Source of the DNA: Promethearchaeum syntrophicum
GTDB lineage: Archaea > Asgardarchaeota > Lokiarchaeia > Sigyniarchaeales > Promethearchaeaceae
Assembly (NCBI RefSeq): GCF_008000775.2
Contig: NZ_CP042905.2
Span: 1,710,001-1,742,000 of the forward strand
Length of the DNA stretch: 32,000 nucleotides
Reading direction: 5' to 3'
The first letter of the stretch is position 1; every line of letters begins with the position of its first letter. Under the pieces are notes generated by a model. That model saw only the letters and a list, made by a program, of their open reading frames with translations, made no database searches and was not told where the DNA came from. Both the position numbers and the translations under genes were made by a program. This document shows, in pieces, positions 7,916-26,391 of the stretch.

Positions 7916-8481
7916 GAAAATATTTTAGTGTCGTTCATGTCAAAAGTTTTTTCTAATTTTATTATATGACTGACTGAAAGTGGGGCTAAATTTCGACGAC
8001 ATAAACTACTACATTAATATAACCAATAAACAGGAAGAAAAAGTAAGAAATACTGAAATATATTTTATTATTAATTAGGATTGATTTTATCCCGATCGGA
8101 TAATTTTAAGCCTGTGTAGCCATTTGGGACAAGGGTCAAAATTAGTGATCAAAAATTAAGCAATCTCTTGACGATATTCCATCCGTTCTCATAGAAATTA
8201 AGGTAGATTTGATTCCTGAAGTTGGAGAGGTTCTTGATCGAGAAGAGTGTCAAGAGTATGCAAATGAGGAGGATTCAATGTATATTGAGATATCAGTGAA
8301 ACTGGGAACCAATGTTGATGATGTGTTTATAGGGTTAACAAGATTGATTAATTCAAAGGACGAGGGCAAATTAGCCCATATATCTTTTTATCGCGGGATT
8401 AGTAAAGGGACAAAGGATGGATTTTTTTTTTTTTTGGAAGCTGGTCGTTTAAACGTGATTGAGAAGGTTATTCCCGTATAA
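7916..8481 (+). pseudogene. Decayed Ras/Rab-like small GTPase gene
   Basis: GTPase-like segments are spread over three frames and broken by stops. NILVSFMSKVFSNFI* (7919-7969) corresponds to the P-loop/helix-1 region. KVGLNFDD...EEK (7974-8078) corresponds to switch I. CVAIWDKGQN** (8113-8148) is a G3 remnant. DIPSVLIEIKVDL...CQEYANEEDSMYIEISVKLGTNVDDVF (8173-) carries a G4 NK->IK change and a G5 SAK->SVK change. A T14 tract lies inside the nominal ORF tail. Confidence 0.5.
8422..8435 (+). terminator. T14 homopolymer
   Basis: 14 consecutive T on the + strand at the end of the GTPase remnant, 14 nt from the stop of the convergent 979-aa gene. Confidence 0.3.
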
Positions 8482-11388
8482 CGCCAACGGGACAACCAGT
8501 GACATAGAATATTTGCAGGAAAATCCCTTCAAAATCGGAATCATATTTTCAAAAAACCGATCTACCAAATTTTTTAACTGAATTATGGCTAGAAAAGCTG
8601 CTTTGCCAGACTTTTTGGATTTTTCAAAGGTAAAAATTTGACCTGCGGGTAATCTTTGAATTATTTTTTTTAAAGCATTCAAATCAGAGGAGGAACATTC
8701 CACGAATAGAGCCACAAAAACGGGATACCCGATAATCTGCCAGAACTCCCATGGTAAAAAATGCGGGTGATATTCTTCATAAGGCGGTTTCGCCCCAAAA
8801 TGAAACGAGAGATCGGTTTTCATCTCCAAATCCCCTAATGTCTGCATGGGGGCTTCTTTCAGATAATTATAATCATCATAATACCAGCTATATGAGTACA
8901 GGGATTGCTCCCCAAAAAACCGTAAATCTTCTTGGAGAGGCAATATTCGGAAAGTAAGCCCAGGATACCGAGTGGTTATCCCATTTATTCCGACATTCCA
9001 CTGGCTTTCTTGATTTTGTAAATCATCATTTGAAACCAGATATTCGAGAATTAGAATATTATCAAGAGATCCCCCGTAGTACCACCCATTTTGAAGATAC
9101 TCGGAAAACAGCACGGAAAAAACCCGCGTTTTTTTCAGAATAAAGGGGTTGATATTCGTGCCCGACTGTGAAAGGATGACAAATATTCGCTGTTTCTTTT
9201 CCAACGTTGGATTTTTTTTTCTCTTTACCCTAAAATCGAACTTATCGGTAATTAAATCAAAATTAAATTGCTGAGTCTGAATATACTGCTTAAAAAAGGT
9301 GATAACCTTTTTTCTATCAATACCGGACGAAATTCTTAGGGTGTTTAGGGTATTAAAATAATGCAAGTCTTTAAAGAACTGAGAATAGGCAAAGTCGGGT
9401 AATTTTTTGTCCCAATTCTTAAAGGAAAGGGATCGAGGAGTCGGCATCTTGCTGGAGGCAAGGGGTTTAAGCAGGGATTGTAAATAATGGTTAAATTTTC
9501 TTTCATCCCACTCTCGGGTTTCAAAATCGAAAAACGCCACCACATTAAATCCGATTTGGGAGGATTGGAATATATAGGGAGAACCGATTGCAATCAGATT
9601 ATCCCGCAAGTAATACTTTGAAAACAACAAGTATTCCTCCACCGTTAAATCAATTTTGATATAGTAGGATATTCTACATACCCATTCTAAGGAGAAAATA
9701 AGTAATTCGGAAAATTTAGGAGATGACCTCGACACCACATTTAATTGAATAATATTTTGACTCGTCAGACTAAAGAAGAAGAAACTGAGATATTTTCTAA
9801 AATAATCTTGTTGGATCAAATGACTAAACCGTGTCTTCAGCTCGGTATTGGAATGATCCCTCCGCTTGGAGAGATATTTGGTAAATTCGGGTAAAATTTT
9901 GGGCACATAGTCGTCAAAGAAATGCTCGGTTAAATAGGAGGTATCGGGAATTTTGAGCAAGGTAAGAATGTGGATCAAATTTTCCACCGATTTCTTATTT
10001 GGATACTTTTTTTTCAGCACTTTTTCGAATTCAGGAATGGGAATTTTTGATTTTTTCGGGATTATGGTCTCAAAGTAGATTTGATCATAGGCTTTCTTAA
10101 TTTTGGGAGAGTGGAGCAGGTGTAAGCACGAAATCAGCTCATTTTCTTCCAGAAGATCATGGAAGGACTTGTTATTGAGATTTATTTTTTCGAATTCAAA
10201 AAAGAGAAAGAAATCCAAGAGATCGAATTGGGGCGAGATATCTTGAATTTGCTTTGGATACACTTGACTATATTTTAACAAAGCGATTTTCGGATTTTTT
10301 TTGGTGGTTTTAGCTAAATGGCGATATTTTTTGGAGGGAAATGGCAGTAATTGGGGAATGTTTTGTTCTCGATGTAGCTTATTATCGAATTGGGTGTTAA
10401 ATTTTGATTCAATGGCAGTGTCGATTAAAAAGGTATCTATTGTTCGCAGTTTTCGTAACTTGTTTAGGTAATTTACCAAGGCGGGTTTAAATTCTGCAGG
10501 AGAAAAGGAAATAAAAAGACAATAATTATTATTTAAGGAAAAATGCGAAAAAAAGGGAATCGGTAAAAATAACCGTTCTAAATATTCTTGGGATCGATTA
10601 GAGTCGGTAAATTTTACATAGATAATGAAGTAGCCAAGCCCGATTTTTGCAAAATTCCTTGCCAAGATGGTGGTAGAAAAGGAATATTTTGCCTGTAATT
10701 CCGAAGTTATTCTTGCATAGTCATCATAATTCTTCAAAGGTGAAGATAGCCCAATAATATCCCGTATCGCGCCAATATTGAATTTCTTAGAATATATCTT
10801 CATCACCCAGATATTGAAAATACTAAAGAAGGCGACTTTCGGATAGGGTGGGTTTAATCGGGCCGCAAAATCGGAAATCAATTCACTCAGAGATATTTCA
10901 GCAAAAATAAACTCCAGAATTCTATCCGTAAAAAAAAGGTGAATGAAGGTATCCGACACAGATTTTTTTATTTCGTTCCAAAGCGATTGAAGGAGGATTT
11001 TATCCGTTTTTTGGAATTGCAAAAGAAAGATCAAGTTTAATAGGTAATTTGAACGAAAATTATCAGGAAGAAAACTCAATACCGCAGCAAAATTGATAAT
11101 TTCGGGTAATATTTCTGTGCATTGAGGTGGGATGGTCACGGTATCATACCCAAACATGGTTCGAAATATTTTCGGAGAAATGCGTTTTTTTCCCTTTTTC
11201 CCCTTGCTTTCCGTATCTATCAATTTTATGTCGCTGAATGGAAACACTCGGTCCCGATGAAATTTTTTCTGGTAAAATTCCAACCTTTTACGGTACACTT
11301 CGATAAGATCGTGGTCGTCCATTTTCACTTTCAACACATTGAGTTCTGGATGGAAAAAACTCCTTCTATTTATGTATTTTTGACTCAC
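8449..11388 (-). CDS. Large hypothetical protein (979 aa), no recognisable domain
   Basis: Long uninterrupted ORF with host-like composition. The nominal start is GTG at 11388, and the first ATG is at 11322 (MDDHDLIEVY). I could not identify any catalytic motif by eye. Confidence 0.8.
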   Translation of the reverse strand: MSQKYINRRSFFHPELNVLKVKMDDHDLIEVYRKRLEFYQKKFHRDRVFPFSDIKLIDTESKGKKGKKRISPKIFRTMFGYDTVTIPPQCTEILPEIINFAAVLSFLPDNFRSNYLLNLIFLLQFQKTDKILLQSLWNEIKKSVSDTFIHLFFTDRILEFIFAEISLSELISDFAARLNPPYPKVAFFSIFNIWVMKIYSKKFNIGAIRDIIGLSSPLKNYDDYARITSELQAKYSFSTTILARNFAKIGLGYFIIYVKFTDSNRSQEYLERLFLPIPFFSHFSLNNNYCLFISFSPAEFKPALVNYLNKLRKLRTIDTFLIDTAIESKFNTQFDNKLHREQNIPQLLPFPSKKYRHLAKTTKKNPKIALLKYSQVYPKQIQDISPQFDLLDFFLFFEFEKINLNNKSFHDLLEENELISCLHLLHSPKIKKAYDQIYFETIIPKKSKIPIPEFEKVLKKKYPNKKSVENLIHILTLLKIPDTSYLTEHFFDDYVPKILPEFTKYLSKRRDHSNTELKTRFSHLIQQDYFRKYLSFFFFSLTSQNIIQLNVVSRSSPKFSELLIFSLEWVCRISYYIKIDLTVEEYLLFSKYYLRDNLIAIGSPYIFQSSQIGFNVVAFFDFETREWDERKFNHYLQSLLKPLASSKMPTPRSLSFKNWDKKLPDFAYSQFFKDLHYFNTLNTLRISSGIDRKKVITFFKQYIQTQQFNFDLITDKFDFRVKRKKNPTLEKKQRIFVILSQSGTNINPFILKKTRVFSVLFSEYLQNGWYYGGSLDNILILEYLVSNDDLQNQESQWNVGINGITTRYPGLTFRILPLQEDLRFFGEQSLYSYSWYYDDYNYLKEAPMQTLGDLEMKTDLSFHFGAKPPYEEYHPHFLPWEFWQIIGYPVFVALFVECSSSDLNALKKIIQRLPAGQIFTFEKSKKSGKAAFLAIIQLKNLVDRFFENMIPILKGFSCKYSMSLVVPLALYGNNLLNHV

Positions 11389-11555: not shown

Positions 11556-12167
11556 ATGGGTTACATTTGTTCAAAATGCGGAAAAGAATATACAAGGCGA
11601 TATCATTATGAAAATCATATAAAAAAATGCACAGGAACACCAACCAAAAAGAAAATAACTAAGAAAAAAGCACCTGTTTCTAGAAAATCTTATGGAAAGA
11701 AAGTTCCAGAGAATATATATTTTGCTGATTTAATCCTCTTTAATGCTGTGAAATCTTTTAAAAAACCTGATTATCTTAAAATACTCGAATTTTGTTCTTC
11801 TTTTGATATTAAAACGGATGAAATTATCTCGAAATTACAAAATAGAATTCGTATTGGGGATATAAAATATCACAATATCCATGAAGAAAACATCCAAAAA
11901 ATTATTACAGATATATTAAATAAACCGAAAATTCAGTATCCGTTTATTATTCCGATTCAGAAATTTCCTCAAGAATTTCCGAGTTTAAATTTTAATGATT
12001 ATGATTCAATTATACAATTCCTACAAAGAATTATTCAACACTATCCAGGATATTTACAATTGAGTTCTTCAAAATTAGGATTTCCTCCAGATTTAGTTAC
12101 CTTTAATCATTTATTCCCAAATTCAGTATTTTTCTCATTATCAAATCGGTGGAGGATAGAAAAATGA
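11556..12167 (+). CDS. Classical C2H2-spaced (C2HC) zinc-finger protein with basic linker
   Basis: The N-terminus is Y-I-C-SK-C-GKE-Y-TRRYH-Y-EN-H-IKK-C, i.e. (Y)xCx2Cx3(Y)x5(Y)x2Hx3C (11562-11630). The linker TPTKKKITKKKAPVSRKSYGKK follows. An A/T box lies ~27 nt upstream of the ATG. Confidence 0.8.
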   Translation: MGYICSKCGKEYTRRYHYENHIKKCTGTPTKKKITKKKAPVSRKSYGKKVPENIYFADLILFNAVKSFKKPDYLKILEFCSSFDIKTDEIISKLQNRIRIGDIKYHNIHEENIQKIITDILNKPKIQYPFIIPIQKFPQEFPSLNFNDYDSIIQFLQRIIQHYPGYLQLSSSKLGFPPDLVTFNHLFPNSVFFSLSNRWRIEK

Positions 12168-14293
12168 GTTTATACATAGAATTTAAAAAAGCAAAAAGCG
12201 ATTTGTTTTTTAAGAAAGATTTATATCAAAAAATATTTCGGATTTTTGAAGGGAAGGGGGGTGATCAGATAATTACAGATCAGATCTTGCCAAAAGGTAC
12301 TCATATTCAAGATCTTCTTATTTTAAATTCAGATATGAAAAGAGCTCGTGATTCTATCTTGATGAAAATCCAAGAATTGGTTAAAAATGACATTAAATTT
12401 TCTGAGAATTTATTCTATTTTTCTCAATACGGTGGGAGTAAAACCCAATTTTTGAACCTAGTTAAGAGTATTATCTGGCAGCACTCCCCGAATTGTATTC
12501 CAATTCTATTAGAGGATATTAGCCAAATTAAGGTAAGAGCCATATTTGAGAAAATGATAGGGCAATTATTAAAACGAATATCTATTATCCCCAAATTTGA
12601 AGAAAATACACAATTATATGATGAATTTTTATCAGAACTAAACAAGCTAATAAGCCGAGTACATATTGCATTTAACCAATCAAAAAATCTTGGGGATGCT
12701 CATGAAATCATAAACAAATTAATGAACATTAAAAATCCAGTAGCGAAAGACCAACTCAGGAAACTAAATGACATCTTACATTCAACTATAATGGTAGATA
12801 AAATTGATATCTTAAATGAAATTGTCTTGTTAATGAAGTTTTGTAGTAAGTATGATTTGATATTCTTATTCATGTTTGATGAAATGGATTTATGGCTTAA
12901 ATCTACATCAGATCACCCTGAACTAAGTCAGAAATTTCGGGATCAACATAAATTTATGAAAAAAATCTTAGACATTCCTAAAAGTCAAGTAAAAATATTT
13001 TTCCTTTTTGCTTGTACCGATCGAGTAAATCGGCTCCTATTTTCGCAAGACCAATTATTTATAAATTCTTCTCCTGCAGCAAGTCGGTTAAATCAAATAT
13101 ATGTGTCCGCGGAAAAAATAATGGAAGCGGGGTGTTATGGATCTGAGATTAAGCAAGCTTTGGTCAAGATCGCCATATATTACTTAGCAAATAATGAAAA
13201 AAAAGATTTTTCTGAACAGTTTTTTACGCAAGTCGCTCCGATTTTAGAGAAAAAGTATCAATCTTATTCTCGAAGAACCAGTAATTCTAGAATTATTCGA
13301 ATGCTTGAAAGTTATCAGTTTTTAGTCAACCCTTTAACTTATGGAATGAAACACTGGGAAAATAATGTAAAGCTTTATGGAGATCTCATTGAAGAACATC
13401 TCGATAAAATACTAAAAAGAATTCATATTAAATTTGTTAGAAAGGAAATATTAGTCGATCCTTCTAAAATCTACTCAAAAGACAGATTAGATGGATATTT
13501 TGTTATTTATGGTGCTGATAGACATGAAGTCAAAACGTATGTAGAAATCAAATTAACTAAGAAATTCGAAGGAAAAAAAGCATCTCAGTTCCTACAATGG
13601 TTAAGCTTAAATCTTGAGAAAAAAATCGTATTGATAGTTTTTAGTCCAACTCCAAAAAGTGAGATCTTAAAACAAATTTCGTTGTATGCAGATTCTCAAG
13701 GGTATCCTCAAGATTTTATAAAAAGGATTGAATTGATTCATATTGAAAATCCTTATGCGTTTGCTCCAATTAATTATTTATCAGATAAATCGTTAGATTC
13801 AGATCAAATTTTAAATTTTTATAACCTATTTGCATTCTGGTTAGATTTTATTGGAGATTTTTCCCATAAATTTCAACAAGTTATTGATAATATTGGTTTT
13901 GGAGTTTTTCCTCCTGAAACACATATTGGAGGTAATTCAGAAGCTTCAGGAATCGAAGATGATGGGCCTCCTCCTGATGATTTTACTTTGGAAGAAAAAA
14001 TTAGTTTGAATTTGATGTTGAATTTATATTTAGAAAAAGCATTTACTCCGTCAGGAAAAATGGGCAAAGCAAAAATTGAAAAAATCATCTCCCAAAAAGC
14101 TTTAGGCATCTCGGATTTGGAAAAATCTTTAGAAAATATGAGAGAAGGAAATTTACTCCTTAGAATAACTGACAAACAAGTGCAATTTGATAAAGATTTA
14201 ATACATATCAATGATTTGGACAATTTTAAAAAAAAAATTCGCTCTGTGTTGACGAATTCAAAAAATACTCAAGGGATCAATTCTTTTTTTTAA
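12164..14293 (+). CDS. P-loop ATPase with deviant Walker A, ~145-aa insert before Walker B, C-terminal winged-helix-like region
   Basis: Walker A-like QYGGSKTQ (12431-12445). Walker B LIFLFMFDEMD (D at 12878). ATG 12164 overlaps the upstream stop (ATGA), and GGAGG (12151-12155) lies 8 nt upstream. The ORF-track start 12149 is a GTG. The C-terminal region GKMGKAKIEKIISQKALGISDLEKSLENMREGNLLLRI looks like a winged helix. Confidence 0.8.
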   Translation: MSLYIEFKKAKSDLFFKKDLYQKIFRIFEGKGGDQIITDQILPKGTHIQDLLILNSDMKRARDSILMKIQELVKNDIKFSENLFYFSQYGGSKTQFLNLVKSIIWQHSPNCIPILLEDISQIKVRAIFEKMIGQLLKRISIIPKFEENTQLYDEFLSELNKLISRVHIAFNQSKNLGDAHEIINKLMNIKNPVAKDQLRKLNDILHSTIMVDKIDILNEIVLLMKFCSKYDLIFLFMFDEMDLWLKSTSDHPELSQKFRDQHKFMKKILDIPKSQVKIFFLFACTDRVNRLLFSQDQLFINSSPAASRLNQIYVSAEKIMEAGCYGSEIKQALVKIAIYYLANNEKKDFSEQFFTQVAPILEKKYQSYSRRTSNSRIIRMLESYQFLVNPLTYGMKHWENNVKLYGDLIEEHLDKILKRIHIKFVRKEILVDPSKIYSKDRLDGYFVIYGADRHEVKTYVEIKLTKKFEGKKASQFLQWLSLNLEKKIVLIVFSPTPKSEILKQISLYADSQGYPQDFIKRIELIHIENPYAFAPINYLSDKSLDSDQILNFYNLFAFWLDFIGDFSHKFQQVIDNIGFGVFPPETHIGGNSEASGIEDDGPPPDDFTLEEKISLNLMLNLYLEKAFTPSGKMGKAKIEKIISQKALGISDLEKSLENMREGNLLLRITDKQVQFDKDLIHINDLDNFKKKIRSVLTNSKNTQGINSFF

Positions 14294-14725: not shown

Positions 14726-15454
14726 TCAAAAAATATTTTCGAGTAATTCTTGATTCATTTTTAGGAATTTATGCCCAAATCCTTTTAATTCTGCCAACCT
14801 CCCCGATATGCCTTTTGGATTTCCTGTTTTCGTATAGGTTATGGTTGTTTCTGTTATGGCTTGGAGAACGTTGTAAGGGGTTTTGAAATGATCGAGCAAA
14901 ATTCTTGCCTTTTTTTCACTTACCTGACACAAGCCTTCCAAGAAAAATAACTGCGAATCCCTCGAAATTTTTTCTTGTTCTATTTTAATAGGGACATATT
15001 CAAAGGGGGCGGATTTTTGCACGAATTTGGCAAAGCTCCAGATGGTTTCTGCAGTTTCTCTGGCATCCCGTGTAGGAAAGAGAGGGATCTTCATTTTGTA
15101 AATGGCATATAGCATCGCCCCGTAGATACTCGCTTCGTACACCCCTTTTCTCTCAAACATCTTGGTAGGATTTTCCAGAATGATCAAGGGTTTGGTGTAA
15201 TGTTTTTTGAGGTGTTGCAGTTGGGAAAAAAACCGATTATCACAAATTGACGCTACCAGATCATCGCCTCGCTTACGTTCAATCGCAATATCGTTGGAAA
15301 TCACATAATCCGCAATATCGAGCGTTTCTATTTGCAGGTGGCAGGGAATAGTTTCAAACACTGCACGGATTTCATTCCTTTCTCGCTCATCCATGATGAT
15401 TAGGGGGTTACATTTCGAGGTAGAGAGTGGTTGGGTTTTGGATGTGGATTGCAT
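14726..15454 (-). CDS. xpf: Short archaeal XPF/ERCC4-family structure-specific endonuclease with (HhH)2 and C-terminal PIP-like box
   Basis: ERCC4 signature IADYVISNDIAIERKRGDDLVASI..R...Q. HhH elements LEGLCQVSEKKARILLDHF and LAELKGFGHKF. The extreme C-terminus is QELLENIF (Qxx[L]xx[I][F]). I prefer ATG 15454 (A/T box 15474-15485) over the ORF-track start 15562. Confidence 0.9.
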   Translation of the reverse strand: MQSTSKTQPLSTSKCNPLIIMDERERNEIRAVFETIPCHLQIETLDIADYVISNDIAIERKRGDDLVASICDNRFFSQLQHLKKHYTKPLIILENPTKMFERKGVYEASIYGAMLYAIYKMKIPLFPTRDARETAETIWSFAKFVQKSAPFEYVPIKIEQEKISRDSQLFFLEGLCQVSEKKARILLDHFKTPYNVLQAITETTITYTKTGNPKGISGRLAELKGFGHKFLKMNQELLENIF

Positions 15455-15551
15455 ATTATTCTTTTTTGGGAATCTATTTAATAGCACATTTTTTCCACGA
15501 TTTTTTGAATGCGACTTTATATAGTCCAATTTTCTTACTTTTTTGATTATT

Positions 15552-15959
15552 ATGATTAACACCTACCCAATTGAAAAAATCAGCAAAATCCGTATGTCGT
15601 CCCTCGAAATTTTCCACAGTCAAACCGAATCAGAACGATGGGATCGCCACATTCACGCCATGATGGAAACCGTGAAACGCACAGAGAATCCGTATGTCTT
15701 AGCCTTCACTTTAAAATTTGCCGCGCGGTTTTATTTCAAACAACACCAATTTGAGACAGCGATAAAACTTGTGAAAAAAGTCTTGCTTATTTATCCTGCC
15801 AATCATCGCCTCCGAAAATCAACCATGTTCGATCTGTACAGGTATCAAATGGTGGATGCCCGTGAAAAAGGGGATGATCTTACTGCGGAAGCATTACGAA
15901 GCAAATTAAAGGAAATGGAAGGCGATCTTAGGGATGATAGTGGATTTATTTCAAAATAA
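15552..15959 (+). CDS. Small helical hypothetical protein (TPR-like helix pair)
   Basis: 135 aa from the first ATG; the ORF-track start 15543 is TTG. The helical-repeat-like stretch is YVLAFTLKFAARFYFKQHQFETAIKLVKKVLLIYP. It is divergent from xpf. Confidence 0.55.
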   Translation: MINTYPIEKISKIRMSSLEIFHSQTESERWDRHIHAMMETVKRTENPYVLAFTLKFAARFYFKQHQFETAIKLVKKVLLIYPANHRLRKSTMFDLYRYQMVDAREKGDDLTAEALRSKLKEMEGDLRDDSGFISK

Positions 15960-16053: not shown

Positions 16054-17619
16054 TTATGGGGTTACTCGACATTGAATAATACTTATTATCTGATTTTTTA
16101 TTTTTCTTTGACTAAAAGGATCTTCAAAGGACATTTTTAACCTTACTGTACATGTTCCCGCTTTATCTGTGGATTTAATGTTAATTTTTAACTTCATATC
16201 GCCTTCAAATTTAAGTACTCTCGGAGGATCTATTTTGTGAAATGCTATCTTAGTTAATGGTGTAAAATCAAGGTGGAATTCTACATTATTTAAAATTAAA
16301 TCCGTCATGTTTTTAATCGAAAAGTCGATTTCTTTCTCCGAATTTCTGGATAAATTAATAAACATACTACCCTCAACTCTTATCCCTTCTGAACTAAGCA
16401 GATATACTACCATATCTCCAAGAAATCCTTTATTTTTAGAAAACATTGGCATTGGAATGAATTCTCGTAATTTTTTATATCGAAGGTGCTCGAACGCGCT
16501 TTTTATTTCATAGAAATATGGAATATGACAATTAAAAGAAAATTCTTTTATTTTTGAATCCTTCTTGAGGATATATTGATTGCAAAGGTGAATTAAAAAC
16601 AAATAATGGTCATTATGCGGGATAATTCCAAATTTTCGACATAAACTGGATTCGGTGTATAAAAATTCCAGTAATTCATAAAATAACCACGATTTATGGA
16701 GAATGCCGCCGTACGGTTTAAAAAAATGACGATATTTAGTGATCCCGAAATTTATAAGCCAAAGCAACAATAAGTCAAACATGTTGCTTTGATTAATAAT
16801 AGTGGTGATTATAGCTAAAAAAGATCCAAAAATCTCTTTTTTCTCTGAATTGGTTTCAATATAGGGTAAAAAAACAGTTTCTATCCACTTTCTTGCTTCT
16901 TTATTAATCCTTTTTTTTGGAATAATAGCTTTTAAAATTTGCCTGTATTGCTTTGAATTTTTGTAGGTTAGAGCCCAAATTGTTGAAATCATCTGTAATG
17001 TTTCTTTATTTGCATCGGAATTTATTAAAATCGGAAAAAGTTCTCGAAGTAAAACAGTATCTTGTAAATCTGATAAATAATAATCGTAATCAAAATGTAA
17101 AATGTCTTTATCTTTCTCGATTCCAATTCTAATAGAGGCGGTAGAAAATTTTTTTTTAACCGAAATTGCAGGTAGGGATTTTATTTTAATTCCAAGTTTA
17201 TGTGAATATTTTTTTGCTAACCTCTCCCAACGTTCCCGAATTTTCTTGTTCTCACTTTCTAATCCAATAATTTTAATGATTTTGGGGAGTTTTAACAGGG
17301 TGGTGGCTTTCCCATGCATTTCTTTAAGTAATTTCTCGCTTTTCTCAAAGTTTGAACCTCCCGCGGACTTTCCATTTTTTAAAAAATAATAAAATTTCAA
17401 AGAATCGCCATAATCTAGGTAAATGACATAGGCGGCACCTGTGAGGCTTTTTATCATGAGATTCGGGAACATACTGCCTTTTTTAAAGACCACGCCCGGT
17501 TTGAGTTGGAGAACGCGAATTTCCAGTGGTTTTTTTTCGGTGAATTCCTTTTTAGCAAACGTTCGGAGTTGTTTTTTGATTTCAGCTTCTTGATTTCGAC
17601 CGATTTTTTTCTTTGTCAT
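16054..17619 (-). CDS. Hypothetical protein (521 aa), Lys-rich N-terminus
   Basis: Long ORF with an ATG start. No motif recognised. Confidence 0.75.
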   Translation of the reverse strand: MTKKKIGRNQEAEIKKQLRTFAKKEFTEKKPLEIRVLQLKPGVVFKKGSMFPNLMIKSLTGAAYVIYLDYGDSLKFYYFLKNGKSAGGSNFEKSEKLLKEMHGKATTLLKLPKIIKIIGLESENKKIRERWERLAKKYSHKLGIKIKSLPAISVKKKFSTASIRIGIEKDKDILHFDYDYYLSDLQDTVLLRELFPILINSDANKETLQMISTIWALTYKNSKQYRQILKAIIPKKRINKEARKWIETVFLPYIETNSEKKEIFGSFLAIITTIINQSNMFDLLLLWLINFGITKYRHFFKPYGGILHKSWLFYELLEFLYTESSLCRKFGIIPHNDHYLFLIHLCNQYILKKDSKIKEFSFNCHIPYFYEIKSAFEHLRYKKLREFIPMPMFSKNKGFLGDMVVYLLSSEGIRVEGSMFINLSRNSEKEIDFSIKNMTDLILNNVEFHLDFTPLTKIAFHKIDPPRVLKFEGDMKLKINIKSTDKAGTCTVRLKMSFEDPFSQRKIKNQIISIIQCRVTP

Positions 17620-19349: not shown

Positions 19350-19841
19350 ATGTACACACGAAATATTGTTTTTAGATATGCTTTATTTAATTTCGCAGAT
19401 GGGTTTAAATTTCACCCTGAAATGAAGGTATTTAACCAAAGTTACAAACAGACTTTGGGAGCTGATGTGTATAAAACGAAATTTCAAATCGAAAATAACG
19501 AAATCAAGGTTTTAATTTGGGATATAGAACCATTTGAGCGGTTTAAACATTTACGGTCAACTTATTATAAGGATGTTTCAGGAATATTGATCCTTTCATC
19601 ATTATCCCATCGTACTGATATTGATAAAATTAAAAATCTAATCCATGAAATTATTTGGGACCATGGAGTATTACCAATCTTAATTTTTAAAACAAAAAAT
19701 CCCGCTCTATCATCTGATGAATTGAATTACAAAGAATTAGAATTCGATTCAATATCCATTTTTAAAATTGAAGGGGATTCTCAAGAATTTATTGAAAAAC
19801 AAATAAAAAAGTCCGTTGAAAAATTACTCCAAGATCTGTAG
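19350..19841 (+). CDS. Rab-like pseudo-GTPase (intact ORF, catalytic motifs lost)
   Basis: TLGADVYKTKFQIENNEIKVLIWDIEPFERFKHLRSTYYKDVSGILIL is collinear with Rab TIGvDF...IWDTAGQERF...YYRga.G. There is no P-loop, G3 is DIEPFE instead of DTAGQE, and G4 is FKTKNP instead of NKxD. Confidence 0.7.
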   Translation: MYTRNIVFRYALFNFADGFKFHPEMKVFNQSYKQTLGADVYKTKFQIENNEIKVLIWDIEPFERFKHLRSTYYKDVSGILILSSLSHRTDIDKIKNLIHEIIWDHGVLPILIFKTKNPALSSDELNYKELEFDSISIFKIEGDSQEFIEKQIKKSVEKLLQDL

Positions 19842-19848
19842 ATTCCAA

Positions 19849-20424
19849 CTAATTTTCCCTCAGATTGAAAAATTTTTTGATTATTGGGGGGAGACGTTTG
19901 GAAAAATCATAAGTCTTAAAATTAAATTCGGTATTATAAATAATCTTCTTGTATTTATGTAAGGAGAGCATGTGGTCATTTAAATTCTTAGCATAAGGCT
20001 GTTTTTCGGTAATTTTATTTTCCTTTATTCTCCTGAGATCAGGCGTAATCCAAATTCGATAGACAAAAAATTTCTTCAGAATTTCGTTTAATCCCTTATT
20101 GATCCCTGAGGATTCCACAATACCAATCGGCATATTCTTTTCTTTGAGATTTTGATAAAATTGTGTAAAGGCATAATCCAAAGCGGATTGAAATTGGAGA
20201 TAGGAGGCAGGATTATTATGGAGATCTTGCGGAGTAAAATTGTTGGTCTGGTAAATGTCCTTAATATCGAAAATCGGGAGATTGGGAAAATATTTTTGGA
20301 TGAAGGTGGATTTCCCTGCGCCCACTAGCCCGATAACATGAATAATGGGGATCTCCGACTTTTTTCGGGGCGAGGTTGGGATTGGCGGATCCCACGTCTG
20401 AAGGTATTTGGAGTCCATTTGCAT
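19849..20424 (-). CDS. Small P-loop NTPase/kinase-like protein
   Basis: Walker A IHVIGLVGAGKSTFI. 191 aa. Same strand as the helicase and 127 nt downstream of it. The substrate is unknown. Confidence 0.7.
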   Translation of the reverse strand: MQMDSKYLQTWDPPIPTSPRKKSEIPIIHVIGLVGAGKSTFIQKYFPNLPIFDIKDIYQTNNFTPQDLHNNPASYLQFQSALDYAFTQFYQNLKEKNMPIGIVESSGINKGLNEILKKFFVYRIWITPDLRRIKENKITEKQPYAKNLNDHMLSLHKYKKIIYNTEFNFKTYDFSKRLPPIIKKFFNLREN

Positions 20425-20551: not shown

Positions 20552-23074
20552 TTAGGTATACTCCAAAAGCGATTTTTGAGACCCGCGAATACTTTCGCTT
20601 TTTCCACTCAACATTTTGCCCGATCGATCCAAGGAAATGCCTGTCTTTTTATGGATTTCAATCGGCGTTGAGTGAAACACCGATTCGGATGATTCATATC
20701 CATTATTAAATAGAATGCGAGCCTGATTTCGGGACACATTCAGATTTTCCATTAAATCCAATAATTCTTCTTTTATCCCGTTTTTAATCCGAACCGACAG
20801 GATACTCAGGATTTTAGCGAATGTGACCTTTTTTCCATTTCGGACTACCTTTTTTTGCATAAATCTGGTGATCGTTTCAAAAGTCGACGCCACCCGCGCC
20901 ATTTCATTCGTCAGCCCAAAGATATCTCCTGCCCCAAACTTGGGAAACACCTCTAAAATATGCTGAAACGTATGTTCGGAAATCCACAATTTAAGAATCT
21001 CTAATTGGGTATCTAAATTGTGTTTGGAGGATTTAAACGAATTAAAAAATAACAAATTTTCTAAAATGAATTCGTCGGTAGAAAACGCATACGATTCCAC
21101 AAGATGTTTAATATTGACCAGATGTTCAGGATAAACATAAAGACTCACGGCTAACGATCCGAAATCTGAAAGTAAATATCGGTCGGCATGGGGAACTTTC
21201 TTAATCAAGCCCTCCCGAAGGAGAAAATCGAACACATACTGATGATTACAGATTAAGGGGATAAGAGATTTGATAACTTTCTGGGCATTGTGTTTTTTCA
21301 TATCTTTTGGGTGATCCTCGGAAAACAGTGCGTTGATAAAAAAAGTGAGATGCGGGCAGAGTTTCTTGTAGAATTTATTATCGTTTTTAATGTCAAATTT
21401 ATATTTCTTTGCTGGATTACATGAGCAAAAAAACCCTTCGGCTAAGTTTATACGGCAATAATACTCCCCAGAATTGCGGAACACCGACCCTTCAATCCTA
21501 TTTGAGTGAACTTTGGAAATTTGGCACGTCACGGGAACCGTGTTTGGAAAGGCACTCCCATAACTCTGCAAAAAAAACCCTAGGTTCATTCGTTGGATAA
21601 AAAAATGTTGAAATAAATCCTCGTAGACAGAGCTTTTCTGTAGACAGAAGGCAAAAAAAGTCCGCTTAAGAAATTTTTCAATCTCAGCCATGGATATTTC
21701 GGGATTTTCAGCGACCAAAAGTAAAATAAATTCCTGAAGAGCATTAGTATCTCCCAATTTAGAAATAAGTTCTGAATATCTTGGTTGGAGAATCTCATTT
21801 TCGAATTTGAAATACTCCCCTAATACAAATTCATATTCCTCTTCGCTTCGAATTAATATGTAACCGATTCCTTCAGTATCCAATCCAAACCTTCCCGCTC
21901 TTCCCAGCATTTGAAAGAGGATATTTGCCGAATGAACTTTCATTATTCCTTTTTCGGTATACGATAAGCGCATTTCGGGATTTTTGTAGTTTTTTTCTGT
22001 GAGATTAATCATTTTTCTGTACTGGAGAATATCACTTACGATTACCACTCTTGCGGGGGTATTAATCCCAGCTGCCAAAGTGGTAGTCGCCACCAAGACT
22101 TTAATAACGCGTTGTCTGTACAGATCCTCGATTAAATGTCTATCTTCGCTACTTAACGCTGCATTATGATAGGCAATCCCGTATCCTATAATGTCAGACA
22201 GCCCTTTAGCTAAGGTTTTTCTTCGGAGGAGGTTTTTTCGCGCGGTCTCACATTTTCTTATTTCTGCGGGATCCAAATATTTATTCACGGTTTTTTTTAA
22301 TTCTTGACTAAAACTGACACAATCTTTCCGCCGATTAACAAACACCAGCACTTGCCCGTTTCCTTCTAACGTTTTAATAATGATCTCTCGAATTTTCGGG
22401 ATTTTCGATTCGTACAGTTCCAGTGTATAACTCAGCGGAACCGGTCGGGAATACGAATGAAGAAGAATAAATTTTTTTCCAAAAGTTTCTAACCATTCGT
22501 GGAACTGCTCATAATTTCCGATGGTGGCACTGAGTGCAATAAACTGCAAAAATTTAATTTTGGTGAGGAGTTTCATCACCACGTTTTCAAGTCTTGGACC
22601 ACGCTGCGAAGCCCCGATCTCATGAATTTCATCGACAATTGCTACCCTCACTCGGGCAAACAATGGATTATTTTGCCTTAGTAACGCATCACATTTTTCA
22701 AAGGTAGTAATCACAAGATCGGCCTCGGCGAGGTCTTGAATCTCCGCATCAGTATCGCCCGTCGTAACACTGACTTTCAAATTATAGGGGTGTAATGTGT
22801 TGGTAAAATATCCCGCTTTTTCATGGGCAAGAGCTTTATACGGGACCAGATAGATCGCCTTTCCGAGATTCTTGAGCAAAATGTTTAGGATGGCCATCAC
22901 TCCAATGAGAGTTTTTCCACTTCCTGAGGGAGTACACACCAAAAAATTCTGATGGAAAAATAATCCTTTCTTTACGGCTTCTATTTGAATGGGGTTAAGG
23001 GCTGTAATATTTTGTTTTTTTAATATTTGTATAATCATGGCATAATCTAAAACTGAATCTACAGAAGTATTCAC
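20552..23074 (-). CDS. Ski2/Hel308(HELQ)-like SF2 helicase with embedded SWIM-type zinc finger
   Basis: Motif Q/I LNPIQ..CTPSGSGKT, II VDEIHEI, III LSATIGN, V VATTTLAAGINTPA, VI QMLGRAGRFGLD. The C-terminal helix-hairpin-helix-like region is NVSRNQARILFNNGYES. CSC-x20-CPH lies at aa 550-575 (about 21350-21427). GTG start 23074 overlaps the upstream TGA (GTGA), and GGAGG lies 7 nt upstream (23082-23086, minus). Confidence 0.9.
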   Translation of the reverse strand: MNTSVDSVLDYAMIIQILKKQNITALNPIQIEAVKKGLFFHQNFLVCTPSGSGKTLIGVMAILNILLKNLGKAIYLVPYKALAHEKAGYFTNTLHPYNLKVSVTTGDTDAEIQDLAEADLVITTFEKCDALLRQNNPLFARVRVAIVDEIHEIGASQRGPRLENVVMKLLTKIKFLQFIALSATIGNYEQFHEWLETFGKKFILLHSYSRPVPLSYTLELYESKIPKIREIIIKTLEGNGQVLVFVNRRKDCVSFSQELKKTVNKYLDPAEIRKCETARKNLLRRKTLAKGLSDIIGYGIAYHNAALSSEDRHLIEDLYRQRVIKVLVATTTLAAGINTPARVVIVSDILQYRKMINLTEKNYKNPEMRLSYTEKGIMKVHSANILFQMLGRAGRFGLDTEGIGYILIRSEEEYEFVLGEYFKFENEILQPRYSELISKLGDTNALQEFILLLVAENPEISMAEIEKFLKRTFFAFCLQKSSVYEDLFQHFFIQRMNLGFFLQSYGSAFPNTVPVTCQISKVHSNRIEGSVFRNSGEYYCRINLAEGFFCSCNPAKKYKFDIKNDNKFYKKLCPHLTFFINALFSEDHPKDMKKHNAQKVIKSLIPLICNHQYVFDFLLREGLIKKVPHADRYLLSDFGSLAVSLYVYPEHLVNIKHLVESYAFSTDEFILENLLFFNSFKSSKHNLDTQLEILKLWISEHTFQHILEVFPKFGAGDIFGLTNEMARVASTFETITRFMQKKVVRNGKKVTFAKILSILSVRIKNGIKEELLDLMENLNVSRNQARILFNNGYESSESVFHSTPIEIHKKTGISLDRSGKMLSGKSESIRGSQKSLLEYT

Positions 23075-23868
23075 AAAGAATCCTCCAGTAAAATCGTTAC
23101 TTTTCCATCTTTCAAAAGATATCGATATGTTTGACGAATGTTTGTTTCGGATACTAAGTGATTTTGTTTTTCTTTGGTAAATGTAAATGAAAGCGTAAGA
23201 AAATTATCATATTGAAAAGATTTGTCCTTAACTCCTTTGGGTGTCTGGTGGAGATATATCCACATTCCCGCAATACTCATCATAAGATCGAAATAATAGG
23301 GAATATTGGTATTATAGCCAGGATGGTAGGTCACGTGATGAGATAAAATCACAAATAAGTGTTTATCAACCACCAAGTCGATCAAAGCAGGTACAATTTT
23401 TTCCGAGATATATTTTAGAGCTTTCATGTTGTCATAATAATCCATTCCATTTCCCAATTCTCTTTTCAGAATGTTTGAAATCGAATCGATTATTACGATA
23501 TCGTTTGATTCCAAAGGATACACATCTTGTTGTAATAGGTTTAATGTTGCGGTGATTTTGGTAAAATTTTGGGAATTATTGACAAATATCCTGTTCTGAT
23601 GGATACTCGAAAATTCATGCATATAATTCCGTATAGAAAATTTTTGCTCCGAATCAATAATAAAATACCTCCGGGAAGATTTCCTAATGTCGTATCGTAT
23701 GAATTCCTTGATGATGGTGGATTTTCCCGAGAGATTCGGACCTGCCAGATGAAGAAATCTATTTTTGGGCGAAAAATATCTGCCGATGAGGGAAAAAAAA
23801 TCACTTGTAATATCTTCCCTATGTTTTTTTGGAATTGTGTTTAGATTTGATGTAGGAGTAAACGACAT
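23071..23868 (-). CDS. RecA-fold ATPase, RadB/Rad51-paralogue-like
   Basis: Walker A LAGPNLSGKST (23716-23742), followed by YFIIDSEQKFS (compare the Rad51/RadA vvYIDTE..F strand). Walker B is DIVIIDSISNIL. It has no N-terminal HhH domain. Its stop overlaps the helicase start. Confidence 0.75.
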   Translation of the reverse strand: MSFTPTSNLNTIPKKHREDITSDFFSLIGRYFSPKNRFLHLAGPNLSGKSTIIKEFIRYDIRKSSRRYFIIDSEQKFSIRNYMHEFSSIHQNRIFVNNSQNFTKITATLNLLQQDVYPLESNDIVIIDSISNILKRELGNGMDYYDNMKALKYISEKIVPALIDLVVDKHLFVILSHHVTYHPGYNTNIPYYFDLMMSIAGMWIYLHQTPKGVKDKSFQYDNFLTLSFTFTKEKQNHLVSETNIRQTYRYLLKDGKVTILLEDSL

Positions 23869-23883
23869 TTTTTATCATATGAT

Positions 23884-24300
23884 TTATTCGATTTCTGAGG
23901 CGCGGTATAATAATGGGTGTTCCTCTTTTACTGGCGATGAAGATACAGTGGGGTGAAATTTTCTATGATGTATGATTTCTGGAACTATTACCTCTTCGTT
24001 TTTCGATTCTTTTAGAGGAATAGATAAAAATTCGATTGTGGTTTCTAACAAGGCAGTTTTTTCCAGATTATCCTGTAATATATCATTTGCAACTAGGTGG
24101 GATTCTTTTTTGAGATAATATTGGGTAAAATGTGCTATATTTTCCTCGATTTTCTGGAGAAATTCCACGTAATGCTGTTTGAATGTGTTTACATCTATCT
24201 TTTTGGCTTCGAGATCTTTGATATGCTGTTTCCAGAGATCGAGATCACCATAAATAATTTTCTGGATTTCTTTCCTTAATTTACCATTGACCGAGCTCAT
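23884..24300 (-). CDS. Small helical/coiled-coil hypothetical protein, first gene of the helicase operon
   Basis: 138 aa with a charged heptad-like sequence. It ends 15 nt upstream of the RecA-fold ATPase gene on the same strand. Confidence 0.6.
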   Translation of the reverse strand: MSSVNGKLRKEIQKIIYGDLDLWKQHIKDLEAKKIDVNTFKQHYVEFLQKIEENIAHFTQYYLKKESHLVANDILQDNLEKTALLETTIEFLSIPLKESKNEEVIVPEIIHHRKFHPTVSSSPVKEEHPLLYRASEIE

Positions 24301-25206: not shown

Positions 25207-26283
25207 TTACAGCGATTCCAACGGATCACTGAGTTCAGCGGATTTACTGACGACCGCTTTCTTTTTGGAGGATTTCTTTTTTTTCGGAGACTTTTTTTTT
25301 GCAGGGGGGGTTGCTTTTTCTTCATCAAAAAGATATTCCACTTTTTCCGAATCCGAAATCCCCGCCTCCGTGATGAAAAAGGATGCAACTTCAGGAGGTA
25401 AATCAGGAGCATCCACAATAATTGCGGATCGTTCCAGACTCGTATTCGCCGAAAATCCTTTGGTCTTGAATTGAATGCGAAAATGACACCCGTGGGCCAC
25501 AATATTCCCTCCAATCGCATCGTTGGCACTATAAGTCCCCTTCATGAATGTAGCCACTTGGTTTGTCAGTAAAACCGCTACATTATGCGTTTCTGCAATT
25601 CGGGAAAGTTCGTGAATCATTTTGTTTAACACTTGTTGACGCGCCGCCAACATCCCAATCCCCACGTATTCCGACCGCATTAACGCCATCAAGGAATCAA
25701 CCACGATAAGACGGGCGTTTTTATCAATACACGCTTGTTCGGCAGCCCGAATCATTTGGAATTGATGATCGGTCGAATAAATCCTGGCATGGTAGATATT
25801 CCCTAGAATTTTTTGGGGATTAAATCCAAATCTTCGGGCGATTCGTTCGATTTTACTCTTGGAGAATGTGTTTTCCGTATCGATGTATAACACTGCTCCA
25901 TCCAATCCGCCCTCATTAATCGGCATTTGGCATGTGACGGCTAATGTATGAGCGAGATTGGTTTTTCCGCTTTTGAAGGCTCCAAACACTTCAGTGAGAC
26001 GACCGGTAGATACGCCCCCATTTAAGATCTCATCGAAATTCTTGCTTCCTGTGGTCAAAAAATCGTAATTCTCTACGATCTCGGACACTTGTTTGAACGA
26101 GGACATTCCCATGACATCCCGAGCATCCCAGATGAGTTTCTTTGAGGCTTTCCCGCTGATCCCCTCGATTTCTTCAAGGTCACCCGGAACACTCATGGAT
26201 AAGGCTTTGATATCGGTGATCCCGTTTTCTTGGAGGAGTTTGATCTGGCGGGGTTTGATGGAAGATAATTCTGCTAATTCCAT
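25207..26283 (-). CDS. radA: RadA recombinase with extra Lys-rich C-terminal tail
   Basis: N-terminal HhH domain (IKLLQENGITDIKALSM..LEEIEGISGKASKKL). Walker A GAFKSGKT. Also VLYIDTENTFSKSKIERIA, Walker B LIVVDSLMAL, and NQV...GGNIVAHGCHFRIQFK. I prefer ATG 26283 (MELAEL), which has TTTATAAA at 26305-26312. The ORF-track start is 26328. Confidence 0.92.
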   Translation of the reverse strand: MELAELSSIKPRQIKLLQENGITDIKALSMSVPGDLEEIEGISGKASKKLIWDARDVMGMSSFKQVSEIVENYDFLTTGSKNFDEILNGGVSTGRLTEVFGAFKSGKTNLAHTLAVTCQMPINEGGLDGAVLYIDTENTFSKSKIERIARRFGFNPQKILGNIYHARIYSTDHQFQMIRAAEQACIDKNARLIVVDSLMALMRSEYVGIGMLAARQQVLNKMIHELSRIAETHNVAVLLTNQVATFMKGTYSANDAIGGNIVAHGCHFRIQFKTKGFSANTSLERSAIIVDAPDLPPEVASFFITEAGISDSEKVEYLFDEEKATPPAKKKSPKKKKSSKKKAVVSKSAELSDPLESL

Positions 26284-26304
26284 GGAGGGGTTACTGGATA
26301 GTGA

Positions 26305-26312
26305 TTTATAAA
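26305..26312 (-). promoter_or_regulatory. TATA box of radA
   Basis: TTTATAAA lies 22-29 nt upstream of ATG 26283 and implies a leaderless mRNA. Confidence 0.45.
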
Positions 26313-26391
26313 GCCGAAATAAAAACATTTTTAGAATTCAAAAATTTTGAGGGCTCTTTTTTTTTATATGCTTCTACCAAAAGATAATTTC

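Follow-up and report, generated by a model that had tools for sequence, protein, structure and literature searches.

In a 32,000-nucleotide stretch of the Promethearchaeum syntrophicum genome (contig NZ_CP042905.2, positions 1,710,001 to 1,742,000; hereafter the window), we identified a gene for an 840-residue helicase that is a divergent member of the Hel308 family with all five canonical domains and that carries an additional segment of ~130 residues. Judging from profile alignment and structure prediction, this insertion splits the winged-helix (WH) domain between WH helix 2 and the recognition helix. It contains the motif CxC-x20-CxH, whose three cysteines and one histidine (a CCCH tetrad) are invariant among the aligned homologs, and it occurs throughout this helicase family in genomes labeled Loki-, Thor-, Hod-, Hermod- and Odinarchaeota. 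Based on sequence conservation and modeling, we hold with moderate confidence that the insertion is a zinc-stabilized accessory domain of ~130 residues; a specific role for it in partner or substrate selectivity is a far more tentative proposal. The Asgard Hel308-family helicase departs from the textbook five-domain enzyme by this invariant, putative metal-binding module in the WH domain.

The host helicase and the position of its insertion

In archaea, Hel308 corresponds to human HELQ and to the helicase domain of POLQ. A Pfam scan of the helicase matched PF00270, PF00271 and PF04851, which cover the RecA1/RecA2 core of superfamily 2 (SF2) helicases. NCBIfam models for Hel308 and related helicases scored 270-347 bits, with equivalog cut-offs at 887-1216 bits; for NF040935, the score of 304.6 bits missed the equivalog cut-off of 1200 bits, which places the protein in a divergent subfamily rather than among the Hel308 equivalogs. 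Its nearest solved relatives by sequence are Sulfolobus solfataricus (Sso) Hel308 and Pyrococcus furiosus Hjm (expectation value (E) for Hel308/Hjm in the PDB, 1e-71). When a profile built from 118 homologs was compared with the PDB, Hjm scored best (E=2e-142, with 382 bits over Hjm residues 4-450), above ASCC3 and Brr2, whose totals add up two helicase cassettes, and well above the ASH-type structure 7UJB (E=5.6e-65). An AlphaFold2 (AF2) model of the full-length protein, with the 118-sequence alignment as input, had a predicted local distance difference test score (pLDDT) of 87 and a predicted template modeling (TM) score of 0.82. Foldseek placed Hel308/Hjm structures (2VA8, 2ZJ8) at the top of its ranking for this model (target-normalized TM of 0.77-0.79), followed by the POLQ helicase domain and Brr2. 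The domains that follow the RecA core are also present: the Foldseek TM scores and the alignment of Hjm 457-506 and 566-697 beyond the insertion account for the WH domain, the ratchet and the C-terminal helix-hairpin-helix (HhH), and the ratchet/HhH region aligns with Hjm 566-697 and Sso Hel308 587-683 and gives a weak match to PF21280. Together, the model scores, the profile match and the Foldseek ranking establish that the host is a divergent Hel308-family helicase with five domains. This agrees with the initial annotation of this DNA, which had described a Hel308-type protein made longer than its canonical relatives by an insertion; the models, PDB searches, Foldseek and the Hjm alignment put the extra length at ~130 residues.

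The location of the insertion follows from the alignment of the 118-sequence profile with Hjm, which consists of three colinear blocks. Hjm 4-450 corresponds to profile positions 12-489; Hjm 457-506 (RNILYFLLENEFIEISLEDKIRPLSLGIRTAKLYIDP..., comprising the recognition helix, the wing and the start of domain 4) corresponds to positions 619-668; and Hjm 566-697 corresponds to positions 688-829. The six Hjm residues between 450 and 457 thus face ~130 profile positions, a segment that is absent from canonical Hel308/Hjm. The Pfam WH model PF20470 (HTH_61) covers residues 429-486 (model positions 23-77 of 92) and breaks at residue 486. In the AF2 model, the N-terminal half of the WH domain consists of helices 443-456, 462-470 and 473-477, and the chain past the insertion forms the recognition helix (614-620) and a beta-hairpin of two wing strands (624-626 and 633-635). 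Because the segment after the insertion corresponds to the recognition helix and wing, these alignments and models place the insertion inside the WH domain, whereas the initial annotation had set it between the winged helix and the ratchet. In PDB searches, a single sequence from which the insertion had been deleted in silico failed to span the junction; the 118-sequence profile spanned it.

The open reading frame (ORF) begins with GTG and shares 4 nt (GTGA) with the end of the upstream gene, whose stop is TGA; GGAGGA sits 8 nt 5' of the start. The encoded protein matches QEE16306.1, annotated as 'DEAD/DEAH box helicase' in P. syntrophicum, at 100% identity. Coordinates of the gene, its domains and the putative ligands are given in Table 1.

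Table 1 Features of the helicase gene and of its upstream neighbor in the window.
Feature	Residues	Positions	Strand	Basis
Helicase, 840 aa, Hel308-family (Ski2-like SF2)	1-840	20552-23074	-	
RecA1 / DEAD	27-189	22508-22996	-	Pfam PF00270, E=3.7e-29
RecA2 / Helicase_C	226-397	21884-22399	-	Pfam PF00271, E=6.6e-11
Winged helix, N-terminal half	~443-481	21632-21748	-	AF2, PF20470 HTH_61, Hjm alignment
Insertion, ~130 aa	~482-611	21242-21631	-	Profile alignment to Hjm, AF2
SWIM-like core	516-583	21326-21529	-	AF2 full-length and domain models
Winged helix, C-terminal half	~612-636	21167-21241	-	AF2, Hjm alignment
Ratchet (domain 4) and C-terminal HhH	~637-823	20606-21166	-	Hjm alignment, Sso Hel308, Foldseek
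Cys550 codon TGC, invariant putative metal ligand	550	21425-21427	-	
Cys552 codon TGT, invariant putative metal ligand	552	21419-21421	-	
Cys573 codon TGC, invariant putative metal ligand	573	21356-21358	-	
His575 codon CAT, invariant putative metal ligand	575	21350-21352	-	
265-aa P-loop ATPase, translationally coupled, upstream of helicase		23071-23868	-	

Conservation and predicted structure of the insertion

Positions 21335-21457 of the minus strand encode CRINLAEGFFCSCNPAKKYKFDIKNDNKFYKKLCPHLTFFI, which corresponds to helicase residues 540-580. Translation, together with direct reading of the codons of C550, C552, C573 and H575 from the DNA, verified the motif originally annotated here, namely C550-S-C552, 20 intervening residues and C573-P-H575. 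The pattern C.C.{6,25}C.H appeared in 23 of 20,000 shuffles of the helicase protein (0.1%) and, among the six-frame ORFs of the window and of five further loci (L001-L005), was confined to these helicases.

A search of 5.8 billion proteins yielded >2,700 relatives, and the best 120 were taken for a motif check. These proteins were 744-898 aa long and, where named, came from Asgard archaea (Promethearchaeota) or an 'archaeon'; all of them (120/120) contained CxC-x19-26-CxH. More remote members had spacers of 13-14 residues. Alignments were made with 41 and then 118 homologs (33-88% identity), and C550, C552, C573 and H575 were invariant in both (118/118 in the larger), although mean column identity in the surrounding region was just 33%. 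In a 37-sequence alignment of the domain, the four ligands were the sole invariant columns. A fifth cysteine, C540, which is part of the segment annotated at first, was kept in 94/118 sequences; in the other 24 its place was taken by V, G, A, I or T. That the CCCH tetrad is invariant while the rest of the domain evolves fast argues for a structural metal site, and we infer that the four ligands most likely chelate a single structural Zn2+.

The same pattern was found at the level of genomes. A scan of one genome per GTDB species gave 80 loci. Wherever their titles specify a lineage, it is an Asgard one (Promethearchaeum, Lokiarchaeum, Hod-, Hermod-, Thor- and Odinarchaeota, or the generic names Promethearchaeota/Promethearchaeia); a minority are titled just 'uncultured archaeon'. 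The helicase ORF was recovered in 84 of 85 Asgard loci (79/80 of the species-representative scan), and each of these 84 ORFs contained the motif, located 167 residues past the GRAGR motif. The consensus reads G-V-[YF]-x-C-x-F-D-I-x-x-G-I-x-C-[ST]-C-G-F ... F-x-F-C-x-H-[IV]-[TS]-x-F-L-x-Y-L. Conservation of the ligands among close orthologs, on which the initial annotation had made its proposal depend, is therefore complete in the 118 homologs and 84 locus ORFs. The same annotation had regarded the insertion as unusual; this stands insofar as canonical Hel308/Hjm proteins lack the segment, but the insertion is not peculiar to one protein, being found family-wide in Asgard archaea.

AF2 modeling predicts a fold for the insertion in which helices 482-490 and 498-505 lead into four strands, a metal loop, and helices 574-583 and 592-609. 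The core strands (516-523, 526-533, 536-543 and 547-550) form a four-stranded antiparallel sheet in the model. The CxC pair lies directly at the end of strand 4 (i.e., C550 closes strand 547-550), C573 is directly ahead of helix 574-583, and H575 falls within that helix. The predicted sheet and helices were packed at a pLDDT of 84-91 in the full-length model, with 89 and 91 for the ten-residue blocks at the ligands, and a model of the domain by itself (pLDDT 80.6) had the same secondary structure. Both models thus reproduce, as a prediction, the strand-like segment ahead of the motif and the helix behind it that had first been read from the sequence, with strands ending at C550 and helix 574-583 at the CxH.

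A putative zinc site and its relation to SWIM domains

The SWIM zinc finger was reportedly described by Makarova, Aravind & Koonin in 2002. The name derives from SWI2/SNF2, and SF2 motors fused to SWIM fingers were already known. In the crystal structure of Shu2, C114 and C116 directly follow strand beta4, C176 belongs to the loop that leads into helix alpha7, and H178 is part of that helix; anomalous scattering confirmed the presence of zinc at this site (PMC5727457). The Shu2 SWIM domain is the interface with the Rad51 paralog Shu1, and Shu1-Shu2 does not bind DNA; SWIM domains were originally predicted to be DNA-binding (PMC5727457 and work quoted therein). The helicase insertion matches the SWIM signature CxC-Xn-CxH (n usually 6-25) with n=20, its ligands are conserved among orthologs, and AF2 predicts the same arrangement of a strand ending in CxC and a helix starting at CxH. 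We conclude that the insertion is a SWIM-like CCCH module, and that its homology to SWIM domains is plausible, with the chances about evenly balanced.

In the mechanism we propose, two ascending helices, the four-stranded sheet, the variable loop and two descending helices would project from the WH domain. C550/C552 and C573/H575 would chelate one structural Zn2+, and this site would rigidify a protruding module that takes no part in ATP-driven translocation. The module could then provide a surface for docking or selectivity, on which recombination and fork-repair partners or branched DNA would be engaged, in parallel with the arch/KOW insertion found in this domain of eukaryotic Ski2 and Mtr4.

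Several results weigh against this reading, most of them concerning its SWIM component. PF04434, the Pfam SWIM model, had no match at E<=10 to the whole helicase or the isolated domain, and across 37 family members a single one reached E=0.44; the gathering score of this model is 19.6 bits, and a positive control (E. coli YehQ) scored 31.5 bits. Pfam and NCBIfam scans of the whole protein, of 131- and 105-aa segments and of the 37 members likewise gave no usable SWIM match. Profile-profile alignment (hhalign) with YehQ SWIM1 and SWIM2 returned probabilities of 0.6-14% over 5-29 columns that were essentially the ligand triplets (CSC or CxH), with or without trimming of the long loop, while the control comparison of YehQ SWIM1 with SWIM2 gave 77% (E=2e-5). 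These comparisons involve one bona fide SWIM family (YehQ) and a Pfam model just 38 positions long, and the YehQ profile is narrow because its homolog search gave mostly fragments and close relatives. A Foldseek search of the PDB with the domain model gave a best E of 0.5 and no SWIM entry, and a search of PDB sequences with the domain profile gave noise (E >= 0.14). Among 1.84 billion representative proteins, the domain profile retrieved 27 matches, all of them members or fragments of this helicase family except one (P0128), which is a spurious repeat translation. On the side of the SWIM reading, the fourth-ranked Foldseek match in BFVD, a collection of predicted viral structures, was a 'SWIM-type domain-containing protein' (E=0.12, probability 0.82, TM 0.46), a weak match that is suggestive only. 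The 20-residue loop between the ligand pairs is modeled with low confidence (pLDDT ~47 in the domain model) and, as described below, its charge flips between clades, and no neighboring gene is kept as a partner across the whole helicase family. With no significant match from the hidden Markov model (HMM), hhalign or Foldseek, the label 'SWIM-type' is left resting on signature and topology. The initial annotation, which had applied that label, is therefore upheld in these two respects but gains no support from the HMM comparison it had itself proposed, nor from the hhalign and Foldseek significance.

The same results would fit an alternative in which the insertion is a convergent, non-homologous zinc module of this helicase lineage, perhaps treble-clef-like, that shares just the CxC...CxH pattern with SWIM. 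No sequence or structure test against SWIM reached significance, the domain profile retrieves nothing beyond the helicase family, and the 19-26-residue spacer exceeds the 6-16 that are usual for SWIM domains (PMC5727457). We nevertheless regard convergence as possible rather than probable. The signature and the strand-strand-turn-strand-CxC layout agree with descriptions of SWIM, as do a hydrophobic residue past the CxC, the sequence C-x-H-[IV]-[TS]-x-F-L at the helix start, and, in 64 of the 118 members, a small residue at position H+3; the remote members have spacers of 13-14, a SWIM-type protein is among the top BFVD matches, and the negative tests rely on a short Pfam model and a single bona fide SWIM family.

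What the module might contact is best considered from its charge. The mean net charge of the insertion is +0.5, compared with +21.5 for the whole helicase, and in 86 of 118 members the inter-ligand loop carries a charge of -2 to -5 and is acidic and aromatic (GFxNGISDNFxNDEFSFEF). A neutral insertion on a basic protein, together with an acidic, aromatic loop, mildly favors protein docking. In the Promethearchaeum clade, the corresponding loop (residues 553-572; 21359-21418, minus strand) is basic with a charge of +5, NPAKKYKFDIKNDNKFYKKL. This change of sign between clades speaks against one DNA-binding loop conserved throughout the family and makes any shared mode of binding via the loop improbable. 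This reversal lies inside an otherwise conserved scaffold. The basic Promethearchaeum loop would suit an insertion that is mainly a nucleic-acid reader (i.e., a wedge or branch-point element near the duplex entry) instead of a docking surface, an idea that overlaps with our own proposal. The original prediction of SWIM as DNA-binding (quoted in PMC5727457) points the same way, as does the Mtr4 arch, which is inserted in the same domain and contacts RNA substrates (PMC5931499, PMC4267639). This alternative is also doubtful, in that the loop is acidic in most members, the insertion is nearly neutral on a protein with a charge of about +21, and the Shu1-Shu2 complex binds no DNA and uses its SWIM domain as a protein interface (PMC5727457).

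Three invariant cysteines and one histidine, with a fifth cysteine (C540) in 80% of members, could also hold an iron-sulfur (Fe-S) cluster in place of zinc. This helicase occurs in strict anaerobes, repair helicases often contain such clusters (e.g., the 4Fe-4S clusters of XPD- and DinG-type enzymes), and the CDGSH proteins bind [2Fe-2S] through three cysteines and one histidine. We consider this very unlikely, as CSC-x19/20-C-x-H does not fit the CDGSH signature C-x-C-x2-(S/T)-x3-P-x-C-D-G-(S/A/T)-H, neither the protein nor the isolated domain matched Pfam zf-CDGSH, C540 is replaced in 24 of 118 homologs, and the same tetrad holds zinc in Shu2. Two further ideas were rejected. A Hachiman HamB-type defense helicase with a sensor insert is suggested by PADLOC models (up to 130 bits) and by HamB in the PDB (67 bits), but these matches were restricted to the generic RecA core (residues 16-217), Hel308 models scored far higher (347-479 bits) across all domains, none of the three neighboring ORFs scanned (265, 138 and 191 aa) matched HamA, and the neighbors are RadA, ERCC4 and Hef-like genes in a synteny that is stable across Asgard species; HamB identity is accordingly highly improbable. 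It is more improbable still that the motif arose by chance or that the insertion is a selfish element (a mini-intein or a recent insertion). Its ~130 aa are in the mini-intein range, but the C-terminal junction consensus (...KNQYIL) lacks HN followed by C/S/T, the insertion is predicted to form a packed sheet with helices, and it is present in every member examined, while a shuffling frequency of 0.1% and four residues invariant in 118 sequences at 33% mean column identity contradict chance.

The most specific form of the SWIM idea is that the insertion is a very divergent true SWIM domain that tethers RecA-family paralogs to the helicase. We think this very improbable. In Promethearchaeum and Lokiarchaeum, the helicase gene shows translational coupling to the gene of a RadB-like P-loop ATPase and has radA close by. 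If true, the helicase would be an archaeal, helicase-fused counterpart of the Shu2/SWS1-Rad51-paralog module and of the metazoan HELQ-BCDX2 interaction, and the link between a Hel308-type helicase, SWIM and Rad51 paralogs would predate eukaryotes.

Gene neighborhood and comparison with known systems

The helicase lies in a neighborhood of recombination and fork-repair genes, a context that counts in favor of the proposed role. In the window it is the last gene of a same-strand (minus) recombination cluster made up of radA (25207-26328; PF08423, E=8e-74), a 138-aa ORF (23884-24300), a 265-aa ATPase and the helicase, and an ERCC4/Hef-type nuclease is encoded on the same strand at 14726-15562. 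The 265-aa ATPase matches RecA, KaiC/ATPase_2 and Elp5 (Iki1) weakly; a profile search of the PDB ranked RecA first (E=5.5e-4), over the P-loop region only. It has 12 close homologs among the 5.8 billion proteins, and syntenic genes in two other loci (L001 and L008) are 28-30% identical to it; an 81%-identical paralog in the same species carries the UniRef name 'RadB'. The ATPase may be a divergent RadA paralog. Lokiarchaeum ossiferum (L001, 2628-8596) has the same succession of radA, small ORF, ATPase and helicase, with ERCC4 right behind the helicase, and the succession is seen again in a third genome; the radA-to-helicase order is partly kept in L008 and L021 and is absent from the major clade. 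We rejected the ATPase as a conserved partner of the insertion, since it is confined to the Promethearchaeum/Lokiarchaeum clade and its resemblance to RecA is weak; it stays a lead of low probability.

The major clade (L002, L004 and ~50 further loci) has its own synteny. A ~635-aa HhH protein (PF14520) lies upstream and is divergently oriented. The downstream side holds two small ORFs (~93 and ~76 aa) that match nothing in Pfam, along with genes for a DUF1922 zinc-ribbon protein and for a Hef/FANCM-like helicase of ~711 aa (DEAD + PF21210 + Helicase_C). Examples are found in L042 (8725-10857), L079 (9720-10241), L074 (3305-5209) and L019 (8436-8714).

The P. syntrophicum genome contains, outside the window, a second copy of the helicase (QEE17768.1, 95% identical), and residues 481-580, which include the whole SWIM-like core up to that point, are 100% identical between the two. 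The 265-aa ATPase is likewise present as a second copy, so the pair appears to have been duplicated. Directly 3' of the helicase in the window is a 191-aa P-loop protein (19849-20424, minus strand; GLVGAGKST) that matches no family significantly; a related Promethearchaeum metagenome-assembled genome (L007) encodes it at 81% identity, where it does not adjoin the helicase. Next to it, on the plus strand (19350-19841), is a 163-aa homolog of Ras/Roc-like small GTPases (PF00071, E=8e-13, from profile position 23 only). By eye, this protein has no GxxxxGK[ST] P-loop and has WDIEPFERF in place of WDTAGQE, and it may therefore be a degenerate GTPase. In the Lokiarchaeum locus (L001, 553-1164), an ORF of 203 aa that lies ~4 kb upstream of the helicase also has weak Ras/Roc/Arf matches. 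Three longer ORFs in the window, of 979 aa (8449-11388, minus strand), 714 aa (12149-14293, plus strand) and 521 aa (16054-17619, minus strand), have no Pfam family at E<=0.01.

In full-text searches of the literature, we found no description of a link between Hel308 and SWIM or of an insertion in Asgard Hel308; the initial annotation had called a SWIM domain in a Hel308-type helicase unusual. Asgard Hel308 is mentioned in a 2026 review of HELQ/Hel308, but with no reference to zinc or an insertion, and one published phylogeny groups eukaryotic enzymes with Asgard sequences (PMC10946056). A 2024 survey that filtered for >=60% coverage of COG1204 recorded no Hel308 in 13 of 15 Lokiarchaeota genomes (PMC10946056). 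Every Asgard species genome returned in our scan encodes an insertion-bearing Hel308-family helicase, and the reported absence may be partly methodological, as the 130-aa insertion and low model scores could defeat coverage filters. The insertion leaves the understanding of helicase mechanism unchanged, and its own function is put forward here as a proposal. It does offer a handle on the question of how the recombination helicases of Asgard archaea select their substrates or partners.

Compared with the archaeal Hel308/Hjm structures (2P6R, 2VA8, 2ZJ2), HELQ and POLQ, the Asgard helicase has the same RecA1, RecA2, WH, ratchet and HhH domains; Hel308/Hjm are its best sequence and structure matches, and it shares with them a DNA-repair gene neighborhood. 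It differs in the 130-aa putative metal-binding insertion in the WH domain and in forming an Asgard-specific subfamily of 810-870 aa that scores 305 bits against an NCBIfam cut-off of 1200. With SWIM domains (Shu2/SWS1, bacterial/archaeal SNF2-associated SWIM and E. coli YehQ), the insertion has in common CxC-Xn-CxH with invariant ligands, strands running into CxC and a helix from CxH (observed in Shu2 and predicted here), and an association with an SF2 motor protein and with recombination genes. Unlike them, it has no significant HMM, profile-profile or Foldseek match, its spacer of 19-26 is longer than typical, it lies inside the WH domain of a Ski2-like/Hel308 helicase and is neither N-terminal nor stand-alone, and it forms a closed family, its profile retrieving just this helicase family.

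Other Ski2-like helicases also carry accessory modules. ASH-Ski2 proteins (COG1202), which are archaeal Ski2-like helicases present in Asgard archaea, have an N-terminal zinc finger of four cysteines (PMC10946056). The two families are alike in placing a cysteine-based zinc module (putative in the Hel308 case) on an archaeal Ski2-like helicase, but the ASH-Ski2 finger is N-terminal with four cysteines and the module described here is internal with CCCH.

Mtr4 and Ski2 carry an arch of ~260 aa that consists of a coiled-coil stalk and a KOW 'fist'. This arch is an insertion into, or a projection from, the WH domain (PMC10946056, PMC5931499). The resemblance to the Asgard insertion lies at the level of the host domain, each being an accessory module within the WH domain of a Ski2-like helicase, and extends to a primary structure in which helices flank a beta-rich globular part on both sides. 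In sequence and fold the two are unrelated. The helicase has no rSAM-like, KOW or DSHCT Pfam match, and Mtr4 and Ski2 align with it over RecA1 only. The insertion is also far smaller (130 aa), has a putative zinc tetrad where the arch has a KOW barrel, and is hosted by a DNA-repair-type helicase and not by an exosome cofactor. Given that WH insertions in Ski2-like helicases and SF2-SWIM fusions were both already known, the Asgard insertion varies known kinds and does not constitute a new category. Together with the Ski2/Mtr4 arch, it suggests that, in Ski2-like helicases, specificity modules may have been inserted into the WH domain repeatedly.

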